Positions 24,694-60,515 of a stretch of 64,000 nt of DNA are shown piece after piece. The position numbers were made by a program, and so were the translations under genes. The stretch is from Candidatus Woesebacteria bacterium GW2011_GWB1_33_22 (GTDB lineage: Bacteria; Patescibacteriota; Microgenomatia; UBA8517). Positions within the stretch are counted from its first letter, which is position 1, and every line of letters starts with the position of its first letter. The notes below the pieces were generated by a model. The model was given only the letters and a program-made list of their open reading frames with translations. It did not search any database and was not told where the DNA came from. The stretch is from assembly GCA_000989765.1 (NCBI GenBank), contig LBOW01000001.1:118538-182537 (forward strand). Reading direction: 5' to 3'.

Positions 24694-27146
24694 ATTATAA
24701 AGATTTAAGAAAAAAATATCCAGAATTTACTTATGATAGTTATTCTTGGAGATTAGATGGTAATAATTTAAATTTAAATTTTATTTATAAAGTAGGAGAA
24801 TTTGAATTTAAACATGAAATAATAATTGAGAATTTAGATAAATACTCAATTAACAAAGTTAATGAACAGATAGATACCCTTGTCTTCAATATCGGAATGG
24901 TTGAGATTTTTAATTACTGGAAAACCTTTTGTTCTCCAAAAATAGTTATCAAAGCTGGTTTCTTGAACGAGCATCAGATTAATTGGTGGAAGAAATTGTT
25001 AATAAAGGGTATGGGGCAGTATTTTTATGAAAATAAAATTGATTTCACAACAAAAAATTTTGTCGATTTTACGACTACAGGACAACCTTTAAAGGTTGAA
25101 CCTTTAAAGGTATTGGGGGAAGAAGTTTTGATACCTATTGGCGGGGGAAAAGATTCTGCTGTTACTTTAGAATTGGTTACTAAAAATTTTGAAAACAGTT
25201 TAGGTTTAATAGTAAACAAAATCAAAGCAAGAGTTGATTCTGCATCTGTTGCGGGTATTAAAACAATGGTTGTCAAAAGAACTTTAGACAAAGCAATGAT
25301 AGATTTAAACAAAAATGGCCTGTCTGCCGGCAGGCAGGGATATTTAAATGGACATGTACCGTTTACAACAGTTTTATCATTTATCTCTATTTTGGTGGCT
25401 TTTTTGAATAACAAAAAATATATAGCTTTTTCAAATGAACAAAGTTCCAATGAGGGAAATGTGACATTTAAAGGGTTATCTGTTAACCATCAATACAGTA
25501 AATCTTTTGAGTTAGAAAATGATTTTAGAGAATATAATTTTAAATATTTGACTGATATAGAATATTTTAGTTTCTTAAGGCCAATTTATGATATTCAGAT
25601 AGCTAAAGTTTTTTCTCAATATTCTAAATATTTTTACAAAATAGTAAGTTGCAATATAGGAAGAAATAATAATATTTGGTGTGGTAAGTGTCCGAAATGT
25701 TTGTCGACATTTATTTTATTTAAACCTTTTTTAAAAAATGAAACTATAACAATATTTGGGAAGGATTTATTGGCTGATAAATCACTTAAACCTGTTTTGG
25801 ATGCACTAACAAATGACAATTTAGTTAAACCGATGGAGTGTGTGGGAACAAAACATGAATTAAGAGTGGCCTTGGGTGTAGAAAACGATGACAATTTAAT
25901 AAATTTTTGGGGAGAAAACAATCTACCTGCAATTTTTAAAATTATTCTTTATTTTAACTTAAATTTCAAAGATAAAAAAATTCTAATTTTAGGGTATGGA
26001 CGTGAAGGTAAAAGTACAGAAAAGTTGATTAAAAAATATTTACCTAAACAAAAAGTTGACATAGCCGACCAAAAATTGAGTAAAGATTATTTAAAAGATT
26101 TAAATAATTATGATTTTGTTTTTAAATCACCAGGAATACCAAATAAATTAAGAGAAATTCAAAATGCTAAGAAAATGGGTACTGTTTTTGCGTCCCAGAC
26201 TAAAATATTCTTAAAATTATATCGAGATAATGTTATAGGAGTAACAGGAACAAAAGGTAAAAGTACAACAAGTTCACTAATTTATTATATATTAAAATCT
26301 GCGGGCATAAATACGACATTGGTAGGTAATATTGGCAAACCTGTTTTTGACTATTTAGATAATGATGACAAAGATAAGATTTTTGTTGCAGAGCTTTCGT
26401 CTCATCAATTAAGTGATGTTCAGGATAGTCCACATATTGCAGTTCTATTAAACATCTTTCCTGAACACCTCGATTACTATGAAGATTTTAATGATTATAA
26501 GAAATCAAAAGAGAATATATTTAAGTTTCAAAAATCAACAGATATTTATATTTCCTGTGAAGATATAAATAATTTTGAGTTACCTAAAATTAAAACAAAT
26601 TTAATAGGTCAACATAATTTAAGTAACATTAAAGCTGCTTTTCTAGTCGCATTAAAACTTGGAATTGACAAAAAAGACATTATTAAAGCACTTTCCACAT
26701 TTGAATCTCTTGAAGATAGGTTGGAAACAATAAGAGAAATAAATGGTATAAAGTTTATAGTTGATGGTTTAGCAACAATCCCTGAGGCATCTCTTGCTGG
26801 TATTGATAGTTTTGAAAACAAAAATATAACCCTAATTTTGGGAGGATTTGATAGAGGTGTAAGTTTTGCTTCTTTTGGAAAAGAGTTAATTAAAAGAAAA
26901 AACATTAAAAACATAATTCTTATTGGTCAAACTGCTGATAAAATTGAAAAATCTTTAAAAAATTCAAAAGCTAATGTTTATAATTTAGGTTTTGTTTCCA
27001 TGAATAAGATTATTCAAAAAGCATTTGAAATTTCAAAAAAAGATTATATAGTTTTATTTTCTCCTGCCGCAACGAGCTTTGACATGTTTAAAGATTATGA
27101 AGAAAGAGACAATCAATTTAAGGAGGCAGTGAAAGCTCTAAAATGA
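24690..27146 (+). CDS. murD: fusion protein: N-terminal ~420-aa PP-loop ATP-pyrophosphatase-like domain (GGGKDS) with a C-terminal Cys cluster, plus C-terminal MurD (UDP-MurNAc-L-Ala--D-Glu ligase)
   Basis: PIGGGKDSAVTLELV PP-loop; CNIGRNNNIWCGKCPKC cysteine cluster; then the MurD Rossmann KKILILGYGREGKST and P-loop GVTGTKGKSTT; contains two in-frame palindromic repeats. Confidence 0.7.
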   Translation: MNYKDLRKKYPEFTYDSYSWRLDGNNLNLNFIYKVGEFEFKHEIIIENLDKYSINKVNEQIDTLVFNIGMVEIFNYWKTFCSPKIVIKAGFLNEHQINWWKKLLIKGMGQYFYENKIDFTTKNFVDFTTTGQPLKVEPLKVLGEEVLIPIGGGKDSAVTLELVTKNFENSLGLIVNKIKARVDSASVAGIKTMVVKRTLDKAMIDLNKNGLSAGRQGYLNGHVPFTTVLSFISILVAFLNNKKYIAFSNEQSSNEGNVTFKGLSVNHQYSKSFELENDFREYNFKYLTDIEYFSFLRPIYDIQIAKVFSQYSKYFYKIVSCNIGRNNNIWCGKCPKCLSTFILFKPFLKNETITIFGKDLLADKSLKPVLDALTNDNLVKPMECVGTKHELRVALGVENDDNLINFWGENNLPAIFKIILYFNLNFKDKKILILGYGREGKSTEKLIKKYLPKQKVDIADQKLSKDYLKDLNNYDFVFKSPGIPNKLREIQNAKKMGTVFASQTKIFLKLYRDNVIGVTGTKGKSTTSSLIYYILKSAGINTTLVGNIGKPVFDYLDNDDKDKIFVAELSSHQLSDVQDSPHIAVLLNIFPEHLDYYEDFNDYKKSKENIFKFQKSTDIYISCEDINNFELPKIKTNLIGQHNLSNIKAAFLVALKLGIDKKDIIKALSTFESLEDRLETIREINGIKFIVDGLATIPEASLAGIDSFENKNITLILGGFDRGVSFASFGKELIKRKNIKNIILIGQTADKIEKSLKNSKANVYNLGFVSMNKIIQKAFEISKKDYIVLFSPAATSFDMFKDYEERDNQFKEAVKALK
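25086..25110. repeat. REP-like palindrome copy 2 (CCTTTAAAGGTT-G-AACCTTTAAAGG), in-frame inside the PP-loop::murD gene
   Basis: perfect 12-bp arms; encodes PLKVEPLKV. Confidence 0.85.
25319..25338. repeat. GC-rich palindrome copy A (CCTGTCTGCCGGCAGGCAGG), in-frame in PP-loop::murD
   Basis: 20-bp palindrome with 1 mismatch; encodes LSAGRQG. Confidence 0.8.
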
Positions 27147-27802
27147 TAAAAGTTGAGGGTGGTGTACCCTTTTTTAAATTTAATCAATTAGAAAATTCAG
27201 GTGTAATCAATTTTGTATCTACAAGAATTGGTGGAGTAAGTCAGGATTCTAGAGACGCATTGAATTTATCATTTGATAATGAAAGTGTCGGCCAAGGTTT
27301 ATTTTTGCATGAAAGTGAGATAGATGGTGTTGATGGTATGATTACAACGCTTCCAAATATTTGTTTATGTGTAGTATCAGCAGATTGTTTACCAATTGTT
27401 TTTTTTGAATCAGAAAAAAGAATAATATCAATATTACATTCAGGTTGGCGCGGATTATCAAGTGGAATTATTGAAAAAATGGTATCCAGTATAACTGAAA
27501 TTGGTGGTAATCCAAAAAAAATTAAAGTCTGTATAGGTCCATTTATAGACGCAAAAAACTACGAAGTTGAAGATGTGTATCATCTTTTTAGTGACATACC
27601 TAAAGCATTATTTCCAAAATCGCAATCGAAAAAATATTTAGACTTAGGAGTTGTGGCAACATCTAAATTAACAGAAATGAAAATTGTTAGAGAAAATATC
27701 GAGATGTCAGGTTATTCGACATATTCAGATGCACATTTATTTTTTTCGTATCGAAGAAACAAGCCGACTGGAGCAATAATGACTGGAGTGATGTTAAAAT
27801 AA
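27143..27802 (+). CDS. pgeF: peptidoglycan editing factor PgeF / YfiH (DUF152) family protein
   Basis: CVVSADCLPIVFF...HSGWRG catalytic motifs; dcw-cluster location. Confidence 0.8.
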   Translation: MIKVEGGVPFFKFNQLENSGVINFVSTRIGGVSQDSRDALNLSFDNESVGQGLFLHESEIDGVDGMITTLPNICLCVVSADCLPIVFFESEKRIISILHSGWRGLSSGIIEKMVSSITEIGGNPKKIKVCIGPFIDAKNYEVEDVYHLFSDIPKALFPKSQSKKYLDLGVVATSKLTEMKIVRENIEMSGYSTYSDAHLFFSYRRNKPTGAIMTGVMLK

Positions 27803-27805
27803 AGC

Positions 27806-28873
27806 ATGAAAAGGTTATTACAAATCTGGGTGGGTAAAGATCTACCTTTGGTACATGTAAAATTAAACAACGGTTTAAAAAAACTTTTTTATGATTTAGT
27901 ACTTCATCCAGTAAAAAGAAGAGTAGCCAAGATTTATGTGAAGTTTTTACAAAAGTTTTTTAAACTCACTGTTGTTGGTATAACTGGGAGTGCTGGTAAA
28001 ACAACTACTAAGGAAATGATTGTTAACATTTTAAAAAGAGTAGACAATACCGTGTGGAGTAAGGACAATATTGATCCTATATTTAATATTCCCACGACAA
28101 TATTAAAATGTACACCTAAAACAAAATATCTTGTACTTGAAATGGGCGTCGAATATCCAAATGAGATGGATTTTTACCTTTGGTTGGTTCGACCGTCAAT
28201 TGGTGTGATTACTAACATTTTTTCCACACATACTTTGTTTTTTGGAAATGAAAAGGGAGTTTTTAAAGAAAAAAGTAAACTAGTAAAAAGTACGAACATT
28301 GCCATTTTAAACTCAGATGACAAGTATCTCTATTCTTTAAAAGATAAGATTAAAGCAAATATTTGTTGGTTTAAAAAAGATGAAGACCCAATTTTGCAAA
28401 ATAAAAATACTGCAAGAGCAGTTTGCGAGGTATTGGGTATTGAAAAGACGTTAATTGAAGAGGGACTAAGTGATTATGAAAATCCCAAACATAGGCTATC
28501 TATGATTAAACATAAATCTGGGGCATATATTTTTGATGATACTTACAATAGTAATCCAGAAGCTTTTAGAAATAGCCTTTCATATTTTGTAAAACTGGCG
28601 GGGAAAAATAATAAAATTGCAGTTGTTGGGGATATGTTAGAACTTGGGGAGAGAGAGGTTGAAGAACACAAAAAAATCGCCAAAGAACTTAAAAATAATA
28701 ACTTTAAAAAAGTTTTTGGGGTTGGTAAATTAGTTAAATATATCACAAACGATGTTTACAATGATCCTTTGTCGGTTATGCCAAACTTGAAAAAATATCT
28801 TAAAAAGGAAAATTATATTTTTATTAAAGGATCTAGATCAATTGGTTTAGACAAACTTGTTGATAGGTTGTAA
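27806..28873 (+). CDS. murF: UDP-MurNAc-tripeptide--D-Ala-D-Ala ligase MurF (short form)
   Basis: Mur ligase P-loop VVGITGSAGKTTTKEM; position before mraY. Confidence 0.75.
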   Translation: MKRLLQIWVGKDLPLVHVKLNNGLKKLFYDLVLHPVKRRVAKIYVKFLQKFFKLTVVGITGSAGKTTTKEMIVNILKRVDNTVWSKDNIDPIFNIPTTILKCTPKTKYLVLEMGVEYPNEMDFYLWLVRPSIGVITNIFSTHTLFFGNEKGVFKEKSKLVKSTNIAILNSDDKYLYSLKDKIKANICWFKKDEDPILQNKNTARAVCEVLGIEKTLIEEGLSDYENPKHRLSMIKHKSGAYIFDDTYNSNPEAFRNSLSYFVKLAGKNNKIAVVGDMLELGEREVEEHKKIAKELKNNNFKKVFGVGKLVKYITNDVYNDPLSVMPNLKKYLKKENYIFIKGSRSIGLDKLVDRL

Positions 28874-28884
28874 TATTTATAAAC

Positions 28885-29934
28885 ATGCAACAATTCTTGC
28901 CATTAGCATTGGGACTAGTAATGTTTTCATTTTTAATAACAGGTATTTTAGTTGTTCCGTTTATTGATTTTTTATATAAAATCAAATTCACAAGACGTGT
29001 TGAGGCACCTAAAATAGGTAAGGTTCCACTATTTGATAAATTACATGATAAAAAGGCAGGTACTCCAGTCGGAGGTGGTGTTTTAATTATTGCAGTTGTA
29101 TGCTTATTATTTGCCTTTACATTTCCAGTAAGTAGATACTTAGGTGTTTTTATTCAGACTGCTTATTCTTTAAGAGTTGAATTGTTTGTTATATTTTTTA
29201 CATTTATTTCATTTGGACTTTTAGGACTTTTGGATGATTATAAAAAGATGTTGGGTAAGCCAACTCGTGGAGTACTTGGTCTCGCCTTTGGGCTATCCAG
29301 GAGAATTAAATTTATTTTGCAATGGACCCTTGCTTTGATTATATCATTAATAATTTATTTTTCTTTAGGTATTCAAATTTTGCACATCCCAATTCTGGGG
29401 ATAACTCTTCATCTTGGGCTTTGGTATATACCTTTCTCTGCTTTTGTTATAGTTTCGTTTACCAATGCATTTAACATTACTGATGGACTAGACGGTTTAG
29501 CCTCCGGACTTCTAATGATCTGCTTAATTGTTTTTGGCGTAATTGCTGCAAATAATATTGATACACCGCTCTCACTTTTTATAGCCCTGTGGATAGGTGC
29601 ATTAATTGCTTTTTTATACTTTAATACATGGCCTGCTAGAATTTGGCTTGGGGACACTGGAGCACTCTCATTTGGTGCAACACTGGCTGTTATTGGACTA
29701 TTAACAGGTAATTTAATTGCCTTACTTATTATTGGTGGAATTTTTGTAATTGAGATTGCCTCGTCAGTTATTCAAATTTTAGGCTGGAAAATTTTAAAGA
29801 GACCCATTTTTAAACTTGCACCACTGCACCACGCGTTTTTAGCAATTGGTTGGGAGGAACCTAAAATTGTTATGCGTGCCTGGCTTGCAGGAATAATACT
29901 TGCCATCTTTGGTTTGTGGTTGGCCACAATATGA
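28885..29934 (+). CDS. mraY: phospho-N-acetylmuramoyl-pentapeptide transferase MraY
   Basis: polytopic; NAFNITDGLDGLA and WPARIWLGDTGALSFG motifs. Confidence 0.9.
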   Translation: MQQFLPLALGLVMFSFLITGILVVPFIDFLYKIKFTRRVEAPKIGKVPLFDKLHDKKAGTPVGGGVLIIAVVCLLFAFTFPVSRYLGVFIQTAYSLRVELFVIFFTFISFGLLGLLDDYKKMLGKPTRGVLGLAFGLSRRIKFILQWTLALIISLIIYFSLGIQILHIPILGITLHLGLWYIPFSAFVIVSFTNAFNITDGLDGLASGLLMICLIVFGVIAANNIDTPLSLFIALWIGALIAFLYFNTWPARIWLGDTGALSFGATLAVIGLLTGNLIALLIIGGIFVIEIASSVIQILGWKILKRPIFKLAPLHHAFLAIGWEEPKIVMRAWLAGIILAIFGLWLATI

Positions 29935-31037
29935 AAAGACCGTTTGATAAACAATTTTTCTATTTAATTTTAATTCTTGTAGCTGTTGGGCTTATTTTTG
30001 TCGCAGATATTTCCGCCCCACAGGCACTAAATTTTTTTAATGATAAATTTCATTTTTTAAAATCTCAAATAATATCTGCAGTCATTGGAATTGTCATAAT
30101 GTATATTATTTCGTTTGTAAATTATTCACTTTACAAAAAAATAGCTACACCATTATTTATTTTTTCTTGTTTACTTTTACTTTTAGTTTTTATACCAGGT
30201 TTAAGTTACGAAGCTTTAGGGGCAAGACGTTGGATTAACATAGTGGGATTTAACTTTCAACCGTCTGAAGTGGTTAAATTAACCCTTGCAATCTATTTAG
30301 CAAAACTAGCTGAAATCGGTAAAAAACCAATTGCTTATTTTGCACCTTTTGTTTTGGTTGCAGGACTTATTATGTTGCAACCTGATTTGGGAACAACTTT
30401 AGTTATCTCGATAATTGCCTTAGCTCAAATTTTTGTTTCGGGAATTCCCTTTCTTTATTTCTTTATTTCTTTATTGGTGGGATTATTAGGAGTTATTGGT
30501 TTAATATTGATTTCTCCATACCGGCGGGATAGATTATTGACATTTTTTGAAAATACTGTTGATCCATTAGGAAAAGGTTATCATATTAGGCAGATTCTAC
30601 TGGCTTTGGGGTCAGGCGGTTTTTTTGGTGTAGGCTTAGGCCAGTCTAGGCAAAAGTATTTATTTTTACCTGAAGCTTCAACCGATTCAATTTTTGCAGC
30701 CATTGCTGAAGAATTAGGCTTTTTAGGATCGTTTGTTTTAATTATTATTTTTGCATTTTTTGTATATAAAGCTTTTATGATTGCAAGATATGCACCTGAC
30801 ACTTTTTCAAAAATACTTGCTGTGGGTATATCATCTTGGATCAGTGGCCAAATAATAATTAACATTTCTTCAATGACGGCATTAACACCTCTAACAGGCA
30901 TTCCACTTCCATTCTTTTCATATGGTGGCACTTCCCTGGTGATGGTTCTTGTTGGTTGCGGTATACTACTTAATATAAATCGATATGGAACAAAAAAGGT
31001 TGTTGATCACAGGAAGTCACGCCGGCACTACCGCTGA
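29916..31037 (+). CDS. ftsW: SEDS-family lipid II flippase/peptidoglycan polymerase FtsW
   Basis: 10-TM SEDS protein between mraY and murG. Confidence 0.8.
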   Translation: MVGHNMKRPFDKQFFYLILILVAVGLIFVADISAPQALNFFNDKFHFLKSQIISAVIGIVIMYIISFVNYSLYKKIATPLFIFSCLLLLLVFIPGLSYEALGARRWINIVGFNFQPSEVVKLTLAIYLAKLAEIGKKPIAYFAPFVLVAGLIMLQPDLGTTLVISIIALAQIFVSGIPFLYFFISLLVGLLGVIGLILISPYRRDRLLTFFENTVDPLGKGYHIRQILLALGSGGFFGVGLGQSRQKYLFLPEASTDSIFAAIAEELGFLGSFVLIIIFAFFVYKAFMIARYAPDTFSKILAVGISSWISGQIIINISSMTALTPLTGIPLPFFSYGGTSLVMVLVGCGILLNINRYGTKKVVDHRKSRRHYR

Positions 31038-49256: not shown

Positions 49257-50012
49257 ATGAATTCATTTTTTGATGAGGAGAGATTGAGGGATAAATTAGC
49301 TAAAAAAAGGAAATATAAAGAATTTCTAAAAACATACCAAAATCCTAGCAATATTATAGATAAAAATACTAAAATCTTTTGGAACAGTTTTACTGTGACA
49401 TATAAAGAAACATTATTAAATAGTCCAGTTTACCAAGACAAAATTAATAGGACCGTAAATTTTTTAGAAAATAAAACTGGAAATATTCTTGATATAGGAT
49501 TTGGTATAGGAGAAATTGAGAGAAGGCTTCAAACATCAGAATTAAAAATTTATGGGATAGATATATCTTCAGTTGCAGTCAAAAATGCAAAAAAAGAATT
49601 GAAAGGAATTTACAGAATCGGAAGTATTTTTAAGATTCCACATGCTACAAAATCTATGGACTTTGTATTTGCACTTGATGTTTTAGAACACATACCGGTA
49701 AATAAAACATTTGATGTATATAAAGGAATTTCAAGAGCATTAAAAGCAAAAGGGATGTTGACTATTTCAGTTCCCATAAACGAAAATTTAGAAGAATTGT
49801 ATATTGAAAATAAAAATCCAAACAACCATCTTAGAGTATATACTCCAGATATTATAAAAACTGAATTAATACTGAACGGATTTAAAATAGTCAAAACAAA
49901 CTATCTTTATGCCTTTGATAAATTTTATTTTATAAAATCATTTTTCGTAAATTTCTTTAAGTTGACTATCAGAAAACCTAATTTAATGATTATTTTTTGT
50001 CAAAAACAATGA
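49257..50012 (+). CDS. class I SAM-dependent methyltransferase
   Basis: ILDIGFGIGEI motif I and ALDVLEHIP motif. Confidence 0.7.
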   Translation: MNSFFDEERLRDKLAKKRKYKEFLKTYQNPSNIIDKNTKIFWNSFTVTYKETLLNSPVYQDKINRTVNFLENKTGNILDIGFGIGEIERRLQTSELKIYGIDISSVAVKNAKKELKGIYRIGSIFKIPHATKSMDFVFALDVLEHIPVNKTFDVYKGISRALKAKGMLTISVPINENLEELYIENKNPNNHLRVYTPDIIKTELILNGFKIVKTNYLYAFDKFYFIKSFFVNFFKLTIRKPNLMIIFCQKQ

Positions 50013-50875
50013 AAATAGTTTTTTTAACACGTAGGGCAGCTCCTCAAATTGGAGGGGTGGAAAGTCATATAGAGCAAATAGCTAAATGTCTACGGTCTAC
50101 GGCGAATGAAGTAAAAATAATTTCTGAAGCTGATATTAAATATCCTCACCTAAAGTTTATTGGCCTAATTTACATTTGGTTTTGGTTATTTAAAAACAGA
50201 AAATTAATTCTGGATTCTGACATTGTGCATATCCATGATGTTTTTATTTGGTATTTGCCATTTAAATTTATATATCCCAAGAAAAAAGTATTTTTAACTA
50301 TTCATGGACTTGAGTGGGGGAATCCTTTTAAATATTCAAGTCTTTTGCAAAAAAGAATTGCAGTTAAATTATCCACTAGTTCAATTGGGGTGGGAAAGTT
50401 TTTAGAAAAATATATTGGATGTAAATTCGACAAAATAATTTACGGTGGGCTAGATCGTTCATTAACTACTAATCACCTGCCTGCGCAGGCAGGCAAATCA
50501 CCAAACACCATTCTTTTTGTGGGAAGGTTAGAACCAGATACGGGACTTGGGGAGTTTCTGAAATGGTTACGTTCTAGTAGTCTAGTTCACGGAACTAAGG
50601 TTGATTTTGTTGGTGATGGAAGCCTCAGATCCGAATGTGAGAGATTCGGAATTGTACATGGATTTTGTGATCCTACTCCATTTTATAAAAAAGCAGAAAC
50701 AGTTGTACCGTCAGGATACTTGACTTTTCTTGAAGCAAAAAGTTATGGCTGTAAAATAAAAACTTTTTATAGTTCTCAACTTAAAAAAGAATATTGGGAA
50801 GAAATTTTAAAATTAAAAAATTTTGACACTTGGAATGATATTGCCAATGTTTATTTAAAGTTGTGGAAAAGGTAA
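49997..50875 (+). CDS. glycosyltransferase (GT4-like)
   Basis: MKIVFLTRRAAPQIGGVESHIEQIAK N-terminus; contains the GC-rich palindrome at 50476-50493 in-frame. Confidence 0.55.
   Translation: MSKTMKIVFLTRRAAPQIGGVESHIEQIAKCLRSTANEVKIISEADIKYPHLKFIGLIYIWFWLFKNRKLILDSDIVHIHDVFIWYLPFKFIYPKKKVFLTIHGLEWGNPFKYSSLLQKRIAVKLSTSSIGVGKFLEKYIGCKFDKIIYGGLDRSLTTNHLPAQAGKSPNTILFVGRLEPDTGLGEFLKWLRSSSLVHGTKVDFVGDGSLRSECERFGIVHGFCDPTPFYKKAETVVPSGYLTFLEAKSYGCKIKTFYSSQLKKEYWEEILKLKNFDTWNDIANVYLKLWKR
50476..50493. repeat. GC-rich palindrome copy B (CCTGCCTGCGCAGGCAGG), in-frame in a GT gene
   Basis: perfect 18-bp palindrome flanked by aatca on both sides; encodes PAQAGK. Confidence 0.8.
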
Positions 50876-51560: not shown

Positions 51561-51565
51561 TTACT

Positions 51566-53515
51566 ATGCCAACTATTAAACCAAATAAAACAATTGAAAT
51601 CATAGATAAAATCTTTAAAGATCCGTCGCTTAAATTTGGCTTAAGGGAGTTTGAAGGATTAAACTTCGAAGATGTTCTTTATATTTCAAAGGGAGATGAT
51701 AATCGATATTTTGTCAAAGACCTAAAATCTGGGAATAATAAATTTGTATTCGACGAATCTACTCAAAATGGAAAACCAGAAGAAATAGTTAGACAACTTT
51801 GGCTTTATAAATTAAATAAGCAATACAAATATTCATTGGAACGAATAGATACAGAAAAAAGTGTTCATTTCGGAAGGGAGATTCATGCAAAAGCAGCAGA
51901 TATTATCATTTACAAAGAAGATAAAATAACACCTTATATTGTTGTTGAAGTAAAAAGCCCAACAGAAGAAAAGGGTATAGATCAACTTAAGAGTTATCTA
52001 AATGCCGAGGGGTGTGAAATAGGCGTTTGGTCAAATGGAATTGATAGGGTAATTCTTTATAGAAATTATCCAAATAGTTTTGAAGATACTCTTTCTGAAA
52101 TACCCGCCTCAGATAAATCGATCGATGATTTATTGTCAGAAAAAAGAACCTTAGCGGATACAAATCCTAAAGTGGATTTAAAAAGAATTATTCAAATTAC
52201 AGAAGAACTGGTTTTAGCTAATGCAGGTGTCGATGTTTTTAATGAAACTTTTAAATTAATTTATGCCAAACTTTATGATGAACAGGAAGCTGAAAACAGA
52301 GAGGATCAAGAAGTATTTTTTAGAAAGTATAAAGATCCACAAAAAACTTTTACTTCAATAAATACTCTTTTTAGAAACGCAATTCGTAGGTGGCCTGGGA
52401 TTTTCTTTGATCAAGAAGTTATAAGACTTACTCCAGAACATTTAAATGTTGTAGTTGGAGAAATGGAAAAAGTACGCCTTTTTGGATCAGATTTATCAAT
52501 TATTGATGAAGCTTTCGAATATCTTATTCCTGAGGTTGCTAAAAGTAAAAAAGGGCAATATTTTACGCCTCGTCATGTTATTAATATGGCTATTAAAATA
52601 CTAAATCCTAAACAAAATGAATATGTTTTGGATCCTGCTGCAGGATCTGGAGGATTTTTAATTTCTACTATGGCTTGGGTTATGGATCAGTACCTGAAAA
52701 ATAATAAATTAAGACAAGAATATGCAAAGGAATATTTGTATGGTATTGATTTTGCAGATGAGACAGCCAAAGTTTCTAGGGCCTTGATGCTTATAGCAGG
52801 AGATGGTCGATCGCATCTATTTAAGTTAAATTCGCTAGATGCCAGAGAATGGCAAGGTGAAGATGAAGACAAACTTCATGCAAGGCTAGAACTTAAGAAA
52901 AGACTTATAAAATACAAAGATTATGCAGAAGAAGAAACCAATCAGAAGACTTTTAAAGACTTTGATTTTGACATAGTTTTGACGAATCCACCTTTTGCAG
53001 GAGAACTCAAAGACCCCGGATTATTAAGGCAGTATGAATTTGGTAAGAAAAATGGAGAATTAGTCAGAAAAATTGAAAGGCATATTCTTTTTATTGAACG
53101 AGATTTGCAGTTTGTAAAGCCTGGAGGCCGCCTAGCTATAGTTCTTCCTCAAGGAGTATTAAATAATACAAATATGCATTATGTTAGAGAATGGTTATTT
53201 GGTAAAGCTAGAATTTTGGCTGTGGTGGGGCTTCATGTAAATACATTCAAACCACATACGGGTACTAAAACTTCTATTCTTTTTCTTCAAAAATGGAATG
53301 AAAATGATGCACCATTAAAAGACTATCCAATTTTTATGGCAGTTTCTAAAAGAAGTGGTAAGGATAATAGTGGTGAGTATATTTATAAAAAAGACACAGA
53401 AGGCAAACCAATTTTTGATTTTAGGGGAAGAAAAGTAATGGATCATGATTTAGATGAAATCGCAGACAATTTTATAAATTTTGCTAAAAAAGAAGGTTTT
53501 GAATTTTGGAAATGA
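51566..53515 (+). CDS. N6-adenine DNA methyltransferase (HsdM/gamma-class) with N-terminal PD-(D/E)xK HsdR_N-like nuclease domain
   Basis: N-terminal AADIIIY...YIVVEVKSP (D...ExK); MTase motif I DPAAGSGGFL and motif IV NPPF. Confidence 0.8.
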   Translation: MPTIKPNKTIEIIDKIFKDPSLKFGLREFEGLNFEDVLYISKGDDNRYFVKDLKSGNNKFVFDESTQNGKPEEIVRQLWLYKLNKQYKYSLERIDTEKSVHFGREIHAKAADIIIYKEDKITPYIVVEVKSPTEEKGIDQLKSYLNAEGCEIGVWSNGIDRVILYRNYPNSFEDTLSEIPASDKSIDDLLSEKRTLADTNPKVDLKRIIQITEELVLANAGVDVFNETFKLIYAKLYDEQEAENREDQEVFFRKYKDPQKTFTSINTLFRNAIRRWPGIFFDQEVIRLTPEHLNVVVGEMEKVRLFGSDLSIIDEAFEYLIPEVAKSKKGQYFTPRHVINMAIKILNPKQNEYVLDPAAGSGGFLISTMAWVMDQYLKNNKLRQEYAKEYLYGIDFADETAKVSRALMLIAGDGRSHLFKLNSLDAREWQGEDEDKLHARLELKKRLIKYKDYAEEETNQKTFKDFDFDIVLTNPPFAGELKDPGLLRQYEFGKKNGELVRKIERHILFIERDLQFVKPGGRLAIVLPQGVLNNTNMHYVREWLFGKARILAVVGLHVNTFKPHTGTKTSILFLQKWNENDAPLKDYPIFMAVSKRSGKDNSGEYIYKKDTEGKPIFDFRGRKVMDHDLDEIADNFINFAKKEGFEFWK

Positions 53516-55221
53516 AAAAGCTCAAAACTTTGGTAGTACAACTCAATCAGGATTATAAGTCTTTTAAAAATGGTTTTAATTACTCCTTCAATGGCGATTT
53601 GATAATTCTTTCAGGCGTAAACGGAAGTGGAAAATCTCAGTTGGTAGATATCGTTTCACAACGAGAAGGCTATGGAAGTAAGAAGCCTATCGCAGCAACA
53701 ATAACCTTAGATGATAAACAAATAACACTCAACGATGTTTTGCGTCGATCGTTTAAAGAAAATGTCAATGTTCCGGAGTTAACACATGCAGGAACAGAGA
53801 CAGTAAGAAGTCATAAGGATCAAGTATGGAATGCGTATAACAGTTATCGTCTGAATTATACCAACGAAAACTTATGGGATTATAAAAAATCATGTGAAAA
53901 GTCCAAAAAGATTTTGATTGAAAAGTTCGGTGAAGAAAAATTTAATTCTGGTCGGATAACACAGACGGATTTGCATGATAAATTGCCGACCGATTTTGTA
54001 TGGAAGTCAGATGATGTTTTTACCAATTTTATTGGTGAACTTTTTTTTAACTATGCGGTTGATGTATATGATGCTGAAGCCGAGGCGGGAAGATCTGGTA
54101 ACAAACTTGATTCCACTTCATTACCTATCCCACCATGGAAACAGTTAAATAGTCTTTTTTTTGACTTAGGGTTTGAATATAGATTTAAGGAGAATTTTTT
54201 TGTAAAAAGTCTTCAGATCAACGAACAACCAAATTTGTATCAAGTAAAAGGTGATGGTACGATTGATGAAAATGAACAGAGAAAGCTTGCTGACCTATCT
54301 GATGGTGAAAAAGCAATTATTTCACTTTCGTTTGCTTCACTATCGGGCGTAAAAGAGAACGACAAGAAAATTTTATTATTAGATGAGTTTGATGCCAATT
54401 TTAATCCATCTTTAACAGAGAGATTTTATAAAATAATTGACAAATATTTTATATCGCAAGGAATTTTAGTAATAGTTGCCACACACTCACCCACAACAAT
54501 TTCTTTAGCTCCAGAAAATGCTAGTTTCTACGAAGCATTTAAGCCAAATACCGGATCATCACGAATTTTGTCAGTGCAAAGGGACGATTATGACGAATTA
54601 AAAATTGCAAACAAGGAGTTTTATTCAAAAATAGCAGACCAGACGAAACGTATTGCTGAATTAGAAAAAGAAAAAACAGAATTAGATATACTTATACAAC
54701 AAACAAAACCTTCTCTATTTGTCGAAGGACCTACTGATGTCCAATATCTAAATAAGGCGTCAGAATTCTACCCCGAATGGAAACAAATTTTGAATAACAT
54801 AAACATAGAAGAGAAACATGGTAGCGAACTACATAAATACAGAAAAAACAAGTCCTACATAAAAGAATTCTTACTCCAACCACTTATATTACTTTTTGAT
54901 TGTGACACCAAGTTAGAAAATATTGATGAACAGCAAGTGTATGTCCGTTGCATACCATTTCTAAAAGAAAATTCTATTAAAAATGGTATAGAAAATCTAC
55001 TACCTGATGATCTGGTTCTTAAAGCCGAAAAATCTATCGGTGAAAAAGTTACAAACAAGTCTATACCTAATGCAGACGAAAAGGACAAACAAGAATGGAG
55101 TGTTATAGGCAGCAAAAAAACAGATCTTGCTGGTTGGATCTGTTCAAATGCGGAAAAAAAGGATTTTGAAAATTTTAAAACAATCTTTGATATTATCCAA
55201 ACAATTATTAAAACAAGATGA
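53506..55221 (+). CDS. OLD-family ABC-type ATPase with C-terminal TOPRIM nuclease domain
   Basis: Walker A GVNGSGKSQ, Walker B ILLLDEFDANFNP, H-loop ATHSPT; C-terminal FVEGPTD (TOPRIM Glu) and LLFDCD (DxD). Confidence 0.7.
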   Translation: MEMKKLKTLVVQLNQDYKSFKNGFNYSFNGDLIILSGVNGSGKSQLVDIVSQREGYGSKKPIAATITLDDKQITLNDVLRRSFKENVNVPELTHAGTETVRSHKDQVWNAYNSYRLNYTNENLWDYKKSCEKSKKILIEKFGEEKFNSGRITQTDLHDKLPTDFVWKSDDVFTNFIGELFFNYAVDVYDAEAEAGRSGNKLDSTSLPIPPWKQLNSLFFDLGFEYRFKENFFVKSLQINEQPNLYQVKGDGTIDENEQRKLADLSDGEKAIISLSFASLSGVKENDKKILLLDEFDANFNPSLTERFYKIIDKYFISQGILVIVATHSPTTISLAPENASFYEAFKPNTGSSRILSVQRDDYDELKIANKEFYSKIADQTKRIAELEKEKTELDILIQQTKPSLFVEGPTDVQYLNKASEFYPEWKQILNNINIEEKHGSELHKYRKNKSYIKEFLLQPLILLFDCDTKLENIDEQQVYVRCIPFLKENSIKNGIENLLPDDLVLKAEKSIGEKVTNKSIPNADEKDKQEWSVIGSKKTDLAGWICSNAEKKDFENFKTIFDIIQTIIKTR

Positions 55222-56606
55222 TAACTTTTTCGATAATCCAAAAATCAGGGCTTGAGGGTGCAGATCGAATTGATGCCGAGTATTACCAACCTGAATATTT
55301 AGAGGCAGAGCGAAAAATAACACACCTTAAAAACGAACCATTAGGAGAAATTTTAGAAATGCTTACGGATTATCATGCCAATGGAAGTTATAGTATATTG
55401 AAAAATTACGGAAAAATTCAAACAGAACCAGATTATGCACTAATGGTAAGAGCAGTTGATCTTCAAAATAGTAACTTTGAGAACGATGTCAGATATGTTA
55501 CTGAAAATTCTTACAACTTTTTGAAGAAAACAAAAATTTATGGCAATGAATTAGTAATAGATAAGATAGGGAATGCGGGAAATGTTTACTTTATGCCAAA
55601 ATTGAATAGGCCTGTAACATTGGGAATGAATCTTTTTATGCTTCGTTTAAAGAAAGATTTTGATTCTAGGTTTGTATATGTTTTTTTAAATTCAAAATAT
55701 GGTAAATTGTCGATTTACAGAAGAGTTACTGGAACAAACCCATCAAGTATAGATAAGGAATCAGTTAGAAGTATAAAAATACCAGCCTTCTCAATCGAAG
55801 ATCAAAATGAGATAGGCCAATTAGTTAACTTATCTTTTGATGAGAAAGAAAATTCTAAAAAAATATATCAGCAAGCAGAGAACTTACTTTTGGAAGAGTT
55901 GGGGCTAAAAGATTTTAAAATTCCTGAAGATTTGAGTTACATTGTTAATTATTCAGATACGGGAAAAGTTGGTAGAGTTGATGCGGATTATTTCCAACCT
56001 AAATATCAAGTAATTTCTGATAAAATAAAAACCAGGAATGCAAAACTTTTAGGAGAATTGGTTACTCTCAAAAAAGGTCTTGAACCCGGAAGTGAAGCAT
56101 ATCAAGAAGAAGGAAAATTGTTCATTCGGGTCAGTAGTTTATCAAAGTATGGAATTGAAGGTAAAGATCAAAAATATTTATCAGACGAACTTTATCAAAA
56201 ATTAAAATTAGATTACGAACCACAACTGGGGGAAATTTTATTAACTAAGGATGCAACTCCCGGAATTTCCTATGTTTTAAAAGAGTTCACTGAAGGGATA
56301 ATTTCAGGCGGAATTTTAAGGCTTAAACTAAAAAGTGATATCGAGCCAGAATATTTATCTCTTTGTATTAGTTCCCTGATAGGACAAATGCAGGCAGAAA
56401 GAGATGCTGGAGGGTCAATTATTGTTCATTGGAAACCAGAACAAATAAAAAATATTTTAATTCCAATTCTATCAAAAGAAACTCAAAGAAAAATTGCGGA
56501 TTTGGTTATAAAATCACATTTAGCGAGAAAAAAGTCAAAAGAATTATTAGATGTAGCAAAACGAAAAGTTGAAGAAATGATAGAAATGAATATAGATAAT
56601 AAATGA
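55218..56606 (+). CDS. hsdS: type I restriction-modification specificity subunit HsdS (two target-recognition domains)
   Basis: duplicated RIDAEYYQPEY / RVDADYFQPKY conserved regions bracketing two TRDs; start overlaps the upstream stop (ATGA). Confidence 0.8.
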   Translation: MITFSIIQKSGLEGADRIDAEYYQPEYLEAERKITHLKNEPLGEILEMLTDYHANGSYSILKNYGKIQTEPDYALMVRAVDLQNSNFENDVRYVTENSYNFLKKTKIYGNELVIDKIGNAGNVYFMPKLNRPVTLGMNLFMLRLKKDFDSRFVYVFLNSKYGKLSIYRRVTGTNPSSIDKESVRSIKIPAFSIEDQNEIGQLVNLSFDEKENSKKIYQQAENLLLEELGLKDFKIPEDLSYIVNYSDTGKVGRVDADYFQPKYQVISDKIKTRNAKLLGELVTLKKGLEPGSEAYQEEGKLFIRVSSLSKYGIEGKDQKYLSDELYQKLKLDYEPQLGEILLTKDATPGISYVLKEFTEGIISGGILRLKLKSDIEPEYLSLCISSLIGQMQAERDAGGSIIVHWKPEQIKNILIPILSKETQRKIADLVIKSHLARKKSKELLDVAKRKVEEMIEMNIDNK

Positions 56607-57487
56607 CTTCAGAAAAAATGAAAGTTTCTGTTTGTGTAACTACAAAAAATGAGAGGGAAGAAACAATTAAAAAGCTTTTTGATGCTTTAAATAATCAAAC
56701 TTTAAAGCCCAATGAAATAATCATAATTGATGCAAAGGATTATGACAACTGCAGTAGATCTATAGGTAGAAACATTGCTATTAAAAAGGCCAAAAATGAA
56801 ATCATTGCTCTAACTGATGTTGGTTGCTTACCTAAAAAAGATTGGTTAGAAAAACTCACAAAACCTTTTCAACAGAAAAATATTGATGTAGTTGCAGGTT
56901 TTTACAACATGACTTACAAAAACAATTTACAAAAAAGCATGAGAAAATTTCTTGGAGTATTACCTTCAAAATTCAATAAGCAGAGCTTGCTACTTCGTAG
57001 TAAAAATTTTTTACCTTCTGCAAGATCAATGGCTTTTACTAAATCAATCTGGAAAAAAGCCGGAGGATTCCCTGAAAAATTAAGCGGAACTGCTGAAGAT
57101 ACGCTTTTTAATGTAAATTTAATTAAAGCAGGAGTAAAATTTGTCACAGCAAAAAATGCAATTGTAGAGTGGGGGATGCCTGAAACAATTTCCAATTTTC
57201 AATTAGCAATTTTCAATTACGCTGAGGGCGACGGACAGGCAGGTATTTGGTGGCATCCTACAAAACGCTTTCAGTCGCACAATATAAAGATAAGCTTGAT
57301 CTACTTGCGTTATCTTTTAGCGTTTATCTTTTTAGCATTTGGTTATTACGGTACTTTAGGTGTCTTTACAGGGATTTATATGCTCTATGCTTTCGGCAAG
57401 GCTGGTCTCTGGGGACTTATTTTGCAACCAGTTTCAGATATTGCTGTTATGGCAGGATTCATTCGAGGTATAATGACTTCTAAATGA
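56603..57487 (+). CDS. glycosyltransferase family 2 with C-terminal TM helices
   Basis: VSVCVTTKNEREETIKKLFDALNNQT...IIIIDA GT-A N-terminus; hydrophobic C-terminus. Confidence 0.7.
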   Translation: MTSEKMKVSVCVTTKNEREETIKKLFDALNNQTLKPNEIIIIDAKDYDNCSRSIGRNIAIKKAKNEIIALTDVGCLPKKDWLEKLTKPFQQKNIDVVAGFYNMTYKNNLQKSMRKFLGVLPSKFNKQSLLLRSKNFLPSARSMAFTKSIWKKAGGFPEKLSGTAEDTLFNVNLIKAGVKFVTAKNAIVEWGMPETISNFQLAIFNYAEGDGQAGIWWHPTKRFQSHNIKISLIYLRYLLAFIFLAFGYYGTLGVFTGIYMLYAFGKAGLWGLILQPVSDIAVMAGFIRGIMTSK

Positions 57488-58692
57488 ATCTTAAATCAAG
57501 CTTACTTTGGACGGGGAGTCTTCGCATTGTTACTCGAGGATTAACAATTATTAAAACCTTAATCCTGGCCCGTATTTTAACTCCAGCACAGTTTGGTATT
57601 TTTGGGATAGCATCACTTGTTTTAGGATTTTTAGAAACAATGACTGAAACAGGTGTTAATGTTATTTTGATTCAAGAAAAAGGTGATATTAAAAACTATA
57701 TAAATACAGGCTGGGTTGTATCAATTGTAAGAGGATTTTTAATATCTTCATTAATTATTTTTATGTCCCCTTTTATAATAACCTTTTTTAATTCGCTAGA
57801 ATCTCTTTATTCACTCCGCTTGATATCTTTAATTCCAATAATCAGAGGATTTATTAATCCAGCAGTAGTTAGTTATCAGAAAAATTTAAAATTTAATAGT
57901 GAATTTAAATTTAGGGGAAGTTTGATTTTATTTGAGGTCGTCACGACCATTTTATTTGGATTGATTATGCGAAGTGAGATTGCATTTGTTTTGGGAATGA
58001 TTACATCTTCTTTCCTTGAAGTTGTGCTTTCCTTTGCAATAATATCTCCCCGTCCCAGATTAGAATTTAATTTTAAGAAACTTAAAATTTTACTGTCCCT
58101 TGGTAAGTGGATTACTTTCGCAAAAATTTTTGATTATTTATTTTCTCACGGTGATGATATTGTGGTTGGAAAGCTTTTGGGAGTATACCCTTTGGGAATT
58201 TACCAACAGGCCTATAAAATATCAACACTTCCAATAACTGAAATTTCAGAAACTTTTCAAAAAGTTACCTTTCCACTTTACTCTAAAATGGTTGCAGAAA
58301 ATGCTTCAATTAAAAAAATATATCTTAAGACTCTTTTAACTACTTCTTTAATAATTATTCCGTTTGGAATTGTTTTGTATCTATTTCCCAAAGAAATAGT
58401 TATTTTAATTTTAGGAAATCAATGGTTATCTGCTGCACCTGTTTTACAGGTTTTAGCAAGCTTTGGTGTTGTTAAAACAATTGCTAATAGTTCATTTCCA
58501 CTTCTTTTGGCTAATAAAAGGCAAGACTTAGTTATGGCACTAACGTTAATTGGAATAATAGGCCTTGGGACAACAATTTATCCCTTGGTTAATATTTATG
58601 GATTAGTTGGTGCTGGAATATCAACAATTATTGGAAGTTTAGTTATGATACCTCCTGCATTTTACTGGGTTAGAAAATTAACAAATGATTAA
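57484..58692 (+). CDS. Wzx-like polysaccharide flippase (MOP superfamily)
   Basis: 12-TM protein with the Polysacc_synt-like N-terminal pattern. Confidence 0.65.
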   Translation: MNLKSSLLWTGSLRIVTRGLTIIKTLILARILTPAQFGIFGIASLVLGFLETMTETGVNVILIQEKGDIKNYINTGWVVSIVRGFLISSLIIFMSPFIITFFNSLESLYSLRLISLIPIIRGFINPAVVSYQKNLKFNSEFKFRGSLILFEVVTTILFGLIMRSEIAFVLGMITSSFLEVVLSFAIISPRPRLEFNFKKLKILLSLGKWITFAKIFDYLFSHGDDIVVGKLLGVYPLGIYQQAYKISTLPITEISETFQKVTFPLYSKMVAENASIKKIYLKTLLTTSLIIIPFGIVLYLFPKEIVILILGNQWLSAAPVLQVLASFGVVKTIANSSFPLLLANKRQDLVMALTLIGIIGLGTTIYPLVNIYGLVGAGISTIIGSLVMIPPAFYWVRKLTND

Positions 58693-59959
58693 TTTTTTAT
58701 TTATTTTAGTAGGAATATTTTTAAGGCAATTTAATATAAATAACGACTATTACTTTACTGGTGAACTTGGCAAAGAACTTATTTTTACTAAACATTTAAT
58801 TGATAACAATATATTTCCAGTAATAGGGATGACTACTTCACATGAGTGGCTAAGTTATGGCCCAATTTATTATTGGATATTAATTCCTTTAACTAAAATA
58901 TTTTCATTTAACCCCTTAGTTTTATTTTGGTTGGCATTTGCAGTTTCAATTATGGGCTTAGTAGTTAACTATAAAGTTATTAAAGAAATAGCAAATCAAA
59001 AAATTGCTATATATTCAACAGTTTTAATTAGTTTATCGCCTTTATTCATATGGCAAACAAGGCTTTCAAAACTTCATGTGTTTTTCTTTATATTAACTCC
59101 TATCTTAATATATTTATTACACAAATTATGGCAAGCTAACTGTAAATATATTTTTTGGACAGGCCTAGTATTTGGTATATTTTTTAGTTTTCATTTTAGT
59201 CAAATTCCACTTATTTTTGTGATTCTAACTATAATGCTAATTAAAAAATATGATTTTTTAAGTTATCTAAAACTATTAATTGGAATTATTATTCCAAATT
59301 TAGGAATAATTTTAAAAGACATAAAAATTTTTCTCTGGTTACCTTATAGAAGTCTTGGTTTATCAAGTGAATCTTCAGGGCAAACGCTAGATTATTTTAA
59401 CAAATTTTTTGGAATGCAATTTTTTTGGGATCAGAAGTTTTGGTTTTTGGGAAGTATATTTTCGATTGGAATCCTAATATTTTATTATAAAAAATACATA
59501 AAATCTGTTAATAATAACTTTTTTAATTTTTATTTAATATTTTCTAGCCTAGTTGTTTTTGGAGGTTTAATATTACATAAAAATCCGCCAATTCACTACT
59601 TTCTTCCAATATTTCCTAATGTCTTTTACATGCTGTCGATTTTGATGGATAAGTATTTTAGCAATAAACAAGTCATATTTATCTTTTTAGTATTTTCAAT
59701 TATTAACATTTGGCGTTATGAAATGCCGACAGATATTGATTATGTGTCTTATAAAAAACAATTAGAAATTTCACAAAAAATTGTTGAAGAAAATAAAGGT
59801 AATTCCATCAAAATAAAAAGAGTTGGACCTTATGATTATTTTCCTGAAAATTATTCCCAAAACTATAAATTCTTAATTTGGTATTTAGGTGGTAAAATCG
59901 ATGACAATTCTGATAATGTAGTTATTATTGATGACAATGAAAATATTAACACTAAATAA
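58685..59959 (+). CDS. polytopic membrane protein (GT-C/polymerase-like)
   Basis: 10 or more TM helices; C-terminal soluble tail. Confidence 0.4.
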   Translation: MINFLFILVGIFLRQFNINNDYYFTGELGKELIFTKHLIDNNIFPVIGMTTSHEWLSYGPIYYWILIPLTKIFSFNPLVLFWLAFAVSIMGLVVNYKVIKEIANQKIAIYSTVLISLSPLFIWQTRLSKLHVFFFILTPILIYLLHKLWQANCKYIFWTGLVFGIFFSFHFSQIPLIFVILTIMLIKKYDFLSYLKLLIGIIIPNLGIILKDIKIFLWLPYRSLGLSSESSGQTLDYFNKFFGMQFFWDQKFWFLGSIFSIGILIFYYKKYIKSVNNNFFNFYLIFSSLVVFGGLILHKNPPIHYFLPIFPNVFYMLSILMDKYFSNKQVIFIFLVFSIINIWRYEMPTDIDYVSYKKQLEISQKIVEENKGNSIKIKRVGPYDYFPENYSQNYKFLIWYLGGKIDDNSDNVVIIDDNENINTK

Positions 59960-60515
59960 GAAAAATATTACAGATTTTGCTTCAGCGCGAAATGATTTAC
60001 TTGATAAATCAGCGTCTGACTGGAATTTATTTTTAGATAGTGATGAAAGATTAAGTAAAAAAATAAATCAGTCATTTAGTAAATCATTAAACCAATATGC
60101 ATTGGAGAGAAAAAATTTCTTTCTTGGTCAATATGTAGGCTCAGATAAAATTGTTAGACTGGTCAAGAAAGGAACTGGAAAATGGCAAAGAGCCGTTCAT
60201 GAAACATGGACTCCGAATAAAACTCTCCTGCCTGCCGGCAGGCAGGACTCCCGATGTGGGATTTTAGATTCTGTTATTATTCATAATACTGCTGACAACT
60301 TGGTAGATTATCTTTCAAAAATTAATAATTATTCAACTCTGCATGCAAAAGAAAATAAAAAAGAAAGTAAAATATCAAATATTTTTAAAATTATATTTTT
60401 TCCAATGGCTAAATTTATTATAACTTTAATTAAATCAAGAAATATTGTTTTTAGTATAATGCAATCACTGCATTCTTATCTTTCATGGACAAAATTATAT
60501 TTACGGCAATACTAA
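59928..60515 (+). CDS. GT2-like glycosyltransferase fragment (DxD region onward)
   Basis: WNLFLDSDERL DxD-type motif but lacks the N-terminal ~80 aa of a GT-A fold; contains the GC-rich palindrome at 60227-60246. Confidence 0.35.
   Translation: MMTMKILTLNKKNITDFASARNDLLDKSASDWNLFLDSDERLSKKINQSFSKSLNQYALERKNFFLGQYVGSDKIVRLVKKGTGKWQRAVHETWTPNKTLLPAGRQDSRCGILDSVIIHNTADNLVDYLSKINNYSTLHAKENKKESKISNIFKIIFFPMAKFIITLIKSRNIVFSIMQSLHSYLSWTKLYLRQY
60227..60246. repeat. GC-rich palindrome copy C (CCTGCCTGCCGGCAGGCAGG), in-frame in the GT2-like ORF
   Basis: perfect 20-bp palindrome; encodes LPAGRQD. Confidence 0.8.

Follow-up and report, generated by a model that had tools for sequence, protein, structure and literature searches.

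Rickettsia palindromic elements (RPE), reported by Ogata et al. in 2000, are said to be imperfect palindromes of 100-150 bp, restricted to Rickettsia, that lie in frame in both protein-coding and RNA genes of a small, AT-rich genome, where they reportedly form a tolerated surface loop and have no linked transposase. Mitochondria host hairpin elements as well, such as the PstI palindromes of Neurospora and the double-hairpin elements of Allomyces. To our knowledge, RPE, REP sequences and the GC clusters of organelles are each confined to one lineage. Organellar GC-rich palindromes include the yeast GC clusters (PMC4478555) and the repetitive hairpin-forming elements of sponges (PMC2800124). Here we describe a family of GC-rich palindromes of 18-21 bp, named PAL here, in a genome of Candidatus Woesebacteria (Patescibacteria, candidate phyla radiation or CPR) from Rifle aquifer groundwater; the window analyzed is a stretch of 64,000 nt of contig LBOW01000001.1. 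Like RPE, PAL is a palindromic repeat inserted in frame in coding sequence, to which it adds a loop; unlike RPE, it is only 18-21 bp long, has perfect dyad symmetry, is hosted by Woesebacteria and is identical across phyla and phage contigs. PAL also resembles the mitochondrial GC clusters, GC-rich palindromes that invade AT-rich compact genomes, including coding regions and tRNA-adjacent sites, and for which, as for PAL, mobility has been inferred by comparison and no enzyme has been assigned. The mitochondrial elements, however, are organellar, lineage-restricted and usually longer, some having short target duplications, whereas PAL is bacterial and phage-borne and crosses phyla.

The PAL pattern CCTGYCTGC(CG)GCAGGCAGG occurs three times in the window, at 25319, 50476 and 60227, where the initial annotation had reported palindromes, and the three copies form one family. 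Copy 1 (25318..25338) is a 21-nt insertion made up of G plus CCTGTCTGCCGGCAGGCAGG; the 20-mer itself, at 25319-25338, is one mismatch from a perfect palindrome, and the additional G could equally be assigned to 25339. It encodes GLSAGRQ in the MurL part of an 818-aa protein (24690..27146, plus strand) in which MurL, the UDP-MurNAc-L-Ala-L-Glu epimerase, is fused to a MurD-type Mur ligase (domains Mur_ligase_M/C, with precomputed matches to PF26299, MurL_N, and PF26298, MurL_epimerase_C). Copy 2 (50476..50493) is an 18-nt insertion, CCTGCCTGCGCAGGCAGG, a perfect 18-mer palindrome without the central CG, and adds LPAQAG to the linker between the domains of a GT4-like glycosyltransferase (49997..50875, plus strand; 288 aa if, as is probable, it starts at the ATG at 50009); its register may be shifted by 2 nt, to 50478-50495. 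Copy 3 (60226..60246) is a 21-nt insertion of T plus CCTGCCTGCCGGCAGGCAGG, a perfect 20-mer palindrome at 60227-60246, and encodes LLPAGRQ in a GT2-like protein of 194/195 aa (59928..60515, plus strand) that is related to the C-terminal part of family-2 glycosyltransferases. All three lie in frame within long plus-strand open reading frames (ORFs) of a gene-dense window in which most genes are on the plus strand, and they are among the strongest local GC spikes in a window of 31.7% GC. The ORF translations give LSAGRQG, LPAQAGK and LPAGRQD at these sites and DGQAGI at a half-site at 57234, in agreement with the peptides first read there.

That half-site, a 10-nt match in a GT2 gene (57234-57243, GACAGGCAGG), had been counted as a member of the family, but it is ordinary coding sequence, GDGQAGIWWHP being conserved in the orthologue of a relative. 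With up to three mismatches allowed, the 20-mer matches just the two 20-nt copies in the window, and no match at all came from 100 dinucleotide-preserving shuffles; the 10-nt PAL arm, with at most one mismatch, occurs seven times in the window against 0.73 expected. Neither the 20 kb beyond the window nor 21 kb of a syntenic relative held further copies. PAL in this species is present in few copies, about one per 28 kb of sequence examined, and is fixed. Folded as DNA, PAL forms a stem of 7-8 bp with a 4-nt loop (-6.5 to -8.0 kcal/mol). The palindrome, read directly, is free of stop codons in all three frames of both strands, and its terminal bases are unable to complete one with flanking bases; with no stop in any frame, PAL could be used as a natural model of how peptide insertions are tolerated.

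Orthologues outside the immediate lineage are without exactly 21, 18 and 21 nt at the three sites, each length a multiple of three. This bears out the proposal in the initial annotation that the palindromes had been inserted into coding sequences; they are not coding sequence conserved among orthologues. The seven residues GLSAGRQ are missing from 17 of 17 MurL homologues (47-77% identity), and removal of G plus the 20-mer from the MurL DNA, where the site sits between ATTTAAA and TTTAAAT, regains the consensus N-G-Y. In the AlphaFold2 model of the MurL part (mean pLDDT 91.5), residues 211-215 (LSAGR) are the sole segment below 50 and are predicted to form a disordered surface loop between two helices. 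The MurL homologues are mostly stand-alone proteins of about 420-460 aa, and one (P0023) is fused to MurB instead. The linker of the GT4-like enzyme is 23 aa long here versus 17-18 aa in most homologues, and its DNA aligns to that of a syntenic Woesebacteria relative (L204, about 83% DNA identity) with a single clean 18-nt gap; an allele 94% identical to the window gene (L207) carries the identical PAL copy. The empty site in the relative reads ...GTTCACC|GTTCACCAAAC..., the tandem 7-mer GTTCACC|GTTCACC being already there. The direct repeat aatca(cc) noticed earlier beside copy 2 is therefore present, but it is not the target-site duplication it had been taken for, because the empty site already contains it and the two sequences differ in length by exactly 18 nt. 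Two orthologues of the 195-aa gene (L234, L236) are without exactly 21 nt, with the empty site AAATCCC|ACTCCCGATG, and a third (L235, 74% amino acid identity) carries C plus the same 20-mer as copy 3. Flanking bases are duplicated at none of the three window insertions. These alignments show the PAL copies to be clean, lineage-specific insertions in three essential-looking genes. Members of the protein clusters at 90% identity or more all carry the insertions. The same proteins are known from many independent assemblies, MurL with its insertion being recorded in ENA, NCBI, JGI and Logan assemblies of many samples.

PAL is common to distant bacteria and phages. A scan of one genome per species with the pattern CCTGCCTGC-N(0-4)-GCAGGCAGG matched at least 120 8-kb blocks of species-representative genomes; the carriers span more than 12 bacterial phyla plus phage contigs, and the flanks are unrelated between loci. 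Within the CPR, PAL was found in Parcubacteria/Paceibacteria, WWE3, Wolfe-, Uhr-, Davies-, Doudna-, Roizman- and Beckwithbacteria, Saccharibacteria and Peribacteria. Carriers among the Bacteroidota include the cultured isolates Winogradskyella echinorum, Flagellimonas yonaguniensis, Robertkochia flava, Longitalea luteola, Algoriphagus taiwanensis and a Flavivirga strain, and others belong to the Omnitrophota, Planctomycetota, Acidobacteriota, Nitrospirota-like lineages, Chloroflexi, Elusimicrobiota, Armatimonadota, Ignavibacteriota and uncultured Gamma- and 'Delta'-proteobacteria. Long-read complete chromosomes are among them. In IMG/VR, 78 viral loci match the pattern, versus 1-12 for control palindromes of the same composition (8 with the arms swapped, 1 with the half-site reversed, 1 for a CCTACCTAC analogue and 12 for a CCAGCCAGC analogue), and the cross-phylum distribution is well supported by these matched controls. 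Chance matches would spread evenly across the five spacings allowed. The genome matches listed (n = 126) comprise 81 20-mers, nearly all with a CG center, 31 19-mers and 14 18-mers, with no center of 3-4 nt among them. Of 91 viral matches, 42 have CG at the center, 29 have no central bases, 14 have a single base, 3 some other dinucleotide and 3 a center of 3-4 nt. Searches of 7.3 Gb of plasmids and 2.3 Gb of GenBank phages, mostly from cultured hosts, did not turn up the exact 20-mer; exact 18-nt matches there fell solely across the artificial junction of a tandem query and were rejected. No description of PAL was found in the literature searched, by sequence or keyword. The sole Rfam family matching the window is a tRNA, and no Rfam family overlaps PAL in 18 PAL loci. 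An identical 20-bp palindrome across distant phyla and phages points to a shared, transferable insertion activity, which could be sought by phylogenetic profiling, and the cultured carriers (Algoriphagus taiwanensis, Winogradskyella echinorum and others) make the question open to experiment.

Copies within a genome share changes that reveal how they arose. The arms, CCTGCCTGC and GCAGGCAGG, are constant and the center varies by 0-2 nt, but individual genomes carry their own variants: one locus (L173) has CGTGCCTGCCGGCAGGCAGG (CGTG...) and its reverse complement at five dispersed sites, another (L198) has CATGCCTACCGGCAGGCAGG (also written CATGCCTA...) in both orientations together with a 21-bp tandem array at the contig end, and chromosome OZ251218 has a variant with the center T. 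The asymmetric changes are common to dispersed copies, and the copies were therefore templated from existing ones. The array in L198 (3916-4142) comprises at least ten tandem 21-bp units (GCCATGCCTACCGGCAGGCAG), each an asymmetric PAL variant, up to the end of the viral contig, and may be real or an assembly effect.

Insertion points outside the window favor sequence that can be unpaired. When PAL was deleted in silico, 11.3% of the junctions, versus 4.6% of controls, fell within the loop of a hairpin that was there without PAL (stem of at least 6 bp; p = 0.001). Two paralogous sequences in L020 form the same hairpin, whose loop contains PAL in one of them and lacks it in the other, and PAL is nested in the center of PAL-like sequences at three loci (L036, L068, L135). 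Genes for tRNA and their remnants are a second recurrent site: PAL lies within 100 nt of a tRNA gene at 3.7% of sites versus 0.9% of random positions. In a tRNA-Met gene of a phage contig the variable loop reads AGG|PAL|TC, a clean addition of 20 nt without duplication. Partial tRNA copies beside an intact copy carry PAL in the D-loop or T-loop (L006, L012 twice, L030, L050, L061, L194 and L120), and a 3' tRNA remnant in L063 has a PAL-containing insertion in its T-loop. At L012 (4340-4700) an intact tRNA-Leu is preceded, on its upstream side, by two 5' tRNA fragments in succession, both interrupted by PAL where the D-loop begins and without an intervening mobile gene, an arrangement that suggests repeated cycles of insertion and local duplication. 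Other GC-rich palindromes occur in such remnants, ACCTACCTCAGGTAGGT in a T-arm remnant beside a PAL 19-mer (L120, about 3170-3230) and CCCGCCCGTACCGAACGGGTACGTTCGGGCGGG in a D-loop remnant (L063, about 880-915), and PAL may be one of several palindrome families that occupy them.

Direct repeats of 7 nt are found next to some copies: abutting 7-mers identical at five or more of seven positions occur at 21 of 193 sites versus 3.1 in controls, with no signal at 6 nt. At ten loci (L081, L056, L093, L126, L174, L147, L160, L132, L166 and L073) PAL sits exactly at a unit boundary of tandem arrays with a 7-nt period; the heptamer varies by locus (GAGTGAT, GGTACGA, GGTGAGA, CCCGAGT, TTCGTCA and others), and in L126 heptamer arrays are followed by their complement. 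PAL was also seen twice in frame, as 19-mers encoding TCLLQAG, in the ORF of an IS630-type DDE_3 transposase on a complete gammaproteobacterial chromosome (L032, 6491-6983), where the two copies lie on either side of the DDE domain, each followed by about 15 nt of similar sequence.

PAL is thus observed as a unit added to DNA without target duplication and propagated from existing copies, and in this compact genome the surviving copies add 3n bases to disordered or linker loops of proteins. The local result, three in-frame palindromic insertions, is solid, and from it and the other loci we infer a mechanism. Our tentative explanation is that PAL is an insertion element of very small size (18-21 bp) that forms a hairpin, is non-autonomous and is copied in trans by a structure-specific enzyme; we put it no more strongly because the enzyme was not found. 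PAL would be recognized and moved as a folded single strand, as suggested by a stem that is invariant while the center varies by 0-2 nt, by the enrichment of insertion points in unpaired loops (hairpins and tRNA-gene remnants), and by the position of the two element ends, which come together at the base of the hairpin, a point at which such an enzyme could cut and rejoin. A dimeric protein reading the duplex would normally be intolerant of a 0-2 nt change in spacing. The HUH/Y1 family (TnpA of IS200/IS605, and RAYT) moves hairpin-bearing single strands without target duplication, and an IS200/RAYT-like activity of this type, supplied in trans, would be the best known model for the enzyme. Spread between phyla would proceed via phages or other transferable DNA.

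Several points weigh against this explanation. No enzyme that could move PAL was found in the window or in the PAL loci, and the window falls in with the initial annotation in this respect, which had suggested that a different, unseen enzyme may mobilize the family. A jackhmmer search with the RAYT-like protein of the window as query found a Y1 gene at one of about 198 PAL loci listed (L015), and it was not flanked by PAL; the RAYT-like gene of the window is flanked by another repeat family. Substrates of IS200/IS605 and REP transposases require guide bases beside the hairpin, as known from work on IS608 and RAYT; the bare 20-mer gives no obvious guide bases, and the conserved 5' GT[AG]G is missing at all three window copies. 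The first outward base is T at 40% and A at 9% of sites, a weak preference with no longer flank consensus. The hairpin-loop and tRNA enrichments are real but concern a minority of sites, and the hairpin model gives no account of the 7-nt direct repeats, often heptamer arrays, that abut PAL at about 10% of sites. A perfect dyad is equally expected from a dimeric protein binding double-stranded DNA or from abutted inverted repeats. Finally, the clusters at 90% identity or more contained no empty allele, and no recent presence/absence polymorphism that would point to ongoing mobility was seen in this species.

The nearest named relatives of PAL are the REP/REPIN-RAYT systems, and it could be an ordinary REP family, a reading that we consider unlikely. 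PAL would then be the hairpin cognate to a RAYT (TnpA-REP) whose gene lies elsewhere in each genome that carries PAL, and would look widespread only through the horizontal spread of one RAYT clade. The likeness is considerable. PAL, like REP, is a short GC-rich hairpin that is dispersed, found in both orientations, non-autonomous, without target duplication and present as lineage- or genome-specific variants, and recognition of a single-strand hairpin is the mechanism proposed for both; one phage contig even has GTAG before PAL, inside a longer repeat. The distribution of several Y1 subclasses across phyla is patchy and takes in Bacteroidetes, Planctomycetes and Acidobacteria (PMC6006769), which also carry PAL. 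Against this, the tetranucleotide CTAC/GTAG abuts PAL at only 4 of 392 flanks (0.9 expected), no PAL-flanked RAYT was found in any of the roughly 198 loci listed, and PAL lacks the 5' GT[AG]G. It is also perfectly symmetric, shorter than typical REPs and, in this window, intragenic. Whereas REPs are species- or genus-specific, PAL is identical across phyla, and we know of no REP family with an identical sequence across phyla.

The window itself holds a RAYT-like Y1 transposase gene (32057-32734; PF01797, motifs NHFH and YIHLNP), but it belongs with the other repeat. Copies of AAGGTTCAACCTTTAAAGG lie at 5883, 25086-25111, 32027, 32241, 32735 and 37984, of which those at 32027 and 32735 stand on either side of the gene and that at 32241 interrupts it in frame (VTLKGSTFKG). 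Insertion of a REP inside a tnpA-REP gene is typical of Y1 subclass 2.4 (PMC6006769). The separation of PAL from the REP family AAAGGTTCAACCTTTAAAGG, made in the initial annotation, is upheld, as that family flanks the RAYT-like gene and PAL does not. MurL, too, contains a AAGGTTCAACCTTTAAAGG repeat in frame, which lies 230 nt upstream of PAL copy 1.

Other named families are more distant. Like miniature inverted-repeat transposable elements (MITEs), PAL is non-autonomous, dispersed, symmetric as an inverted repeat and sometimes in frame in genes, but MITEs measure 50-500 bp and have internal sequence and target-site duplications, whereas PAL has neither interior nor duplication. Like HIP1 of cyanobacteria (GCGATCGC), which is over-represented in coding and non-coding DNA alike, it is a short, GC-rich, perfect palindrome; HIP1, however, is 8 bp long, phylum-specific and mainly the product of a substitution bias acting on sequence already present, and PAL is a 20-bp unit physically inserted. 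In mode of action PAL is most like REP, and in its effect on genes most like RPE and the mitochondrial GC clusters. It is a short interspersed palindromic element outside all named families, since it lacks the defining features of REP/RAYT (guide tetranucleotide, a cognate RAYT flanked by it, lineage specificity), of MITEs (interior, target duplication) and of RPE (length, host) and there is no Rfam match.

The symmetry of PAL, with length variation confined to the center, would also fit the remnant of a cut-and-paste DDE transposon in which the tips of terminal inverted repeats, some 9-10 bp each, have been joined. Such a footprint of solo terminal repeats, or zero-length MITE, would arise by excision or internal deletion, and end joining would leave the 0-2 nt at the center. 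The excess of 7-nt direct repeats and its absence at 6 nt argue for this origin. It is nevertheless quite unlikely: the three window insertions and the tRNA cases are without duplication, the 7-mer pair flanking the GT4 copy pre-exists in the empty site, and flanking repeats elsewhere are often arrays of more than two heptamers, not simple duplications. Moreover, the 1.6 Mb of sequence around PAL copies revealed no recurrent transposase, and separated PAL half-sites were not seen to bound any element in the loci listed. When 3,038 ORFs from 120 PAL loci listed were compared all against all, no gene family appeared in more than five loci, and phage contigs with several copies have no protein in common, only ordinary terminase, tail and HNH functions.

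Small GIY-YIG genes (PF01541) are found close to PAL more often than might be expected, with 7 of the 8 in the PAL loci listed lying less than 400 nt from a copy, in sequence that makes up about 14% of the DNA. At five loci the gene lies between a PAL-carrying tRNA fragment and an intact tRNA. These genes, of about 80-90 aa (L061, 2080-2500; L194, 470-820; L120, 3150-3650; L063, 780-1300; L087, 6600-7000), are inserted in tRNA genes at the anticodon loop, with a partial copy on one side and the intact tRNA on the other, in CPR genomes, in the Bacteroidota (Algoriphagus taiwanensis) and in a phage contig, and look like a tRNA-targeting mobile cassette that restores its target. A homing-type nuclease of this kind might cut at or near a target that is then repaired by copying PAL from a different locus, or PAL might be its recognition site, and some GIY-YIG restriction enzymes, such as Eco29kI, do cut GC-rich palindromes. 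We regard this as improbable, as only about 4% of the PAL loci listed contain a GIY-YIG gene, there is none in the window or in the 20 kb around it, and the variable spacing of the half-sites is unlike a fixed dimeric duplex site; the association, which is real but rare and seen at tRNA remnants alone, is explicable by both elements accumulating there.

A hairpin or protein-binding site useful to the host (terminator, RNA stabilizer or operator), kept by selection and only apparently mobile through exchange or repeated origin, is more improbable still. In its favor, PAL in phage contigs is often intergenic and sometimes part of a longer repeat with a terminator-like hairpin (L156, L187), and the perfect 20-mer is identical in the window and L235 despite differing flanks. 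All window copies, however, are inside essential-looking coding sequences, where they are followed by GATATT, CAAATC and ACTCCC and not by the T-run of an intrinsic terminator. Convergence cannot yield identical 20-mers in more than 12 phyla, the variation in center length and the nesting in PAL-like sequences are unlike an operator, and the PAL loci listed share no conserved neighbor gene. The suggestion in the initial annotation of a restriction or recognition site with a GCCGGC core (NaeI/NgoMIV-type) fits poorly, because the 18-mers and 19-mers, window copy 2 included, do not have that core. A technical artefact, from a palindromic linker or adapter or from misassembly, is hardly credible: although some mate-pair chemistries use palindromic junction linkers and the carriers are mostly metagenome-assembled genomes, the flanks are collinear coding sequence and not chimeric junctions, the MurL insertion recurs in assemblies of many samples from all four sources named above, the window copies keep the reading frame, that in MurL with a point difference that is stable, and PAL, with genome-specific variants, is carried by cultured isolates and long-read complete chromosomes. 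Fragments of rRNA, SRP RNA and RNase P RNA, CRISPR repeats, integron attC, dif and telomere-resolvase sites and mate-pair linkers were likewise rejected, for want of sequence resemblance or given the collinear flanks.

If PAL is indeed a hairpin element copied in trans, a further-reaching claim could be made, possible though doubtful, namely that it is smaller than any other mobile DNA unit so far seen in bacteria, being a bare hairpin of 18-21 nt, with no interior or target duplication, that is copied into unpaired DNA by an unrecognized, horizontally transmitted hairpin-specific activity and has colonized more than 12 phyla and their phages, reshaping protein loops and inactivating redundant tRNA fragments. 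In reduced genomes PAL is a source of in-frame loop insertions of 6-7 residues in essential genes, and it can break assemblies and create spurious small ORFs.

The neighborhood of the GT4 gene showed two further features. Between the GT4 and GT2 genes (51566-56606) the window contains a type I restriction-modification-like cluster, with genes for an N6_Mtase/Eco57I protein of 649 aa, an SMC_N/AAA_21 protein and an HsdS-like protein of 462 aa; the corresponding cluster of the syntenic relative L204 has the methylase and S subunit without the SMC/AAA gene. The GT4 gene of the same relative, orthologous to window 49997-50875, carries a distinct in-frame insertion of about 96 nt (L204, 10730-10827) made of several hairpins (cctcgcagaaagctgcgagg, cctcgcatttaaaatgcgagg and gacatcctcc...ggaggatgtc), which is a further palindromic element family inside coding sequence.

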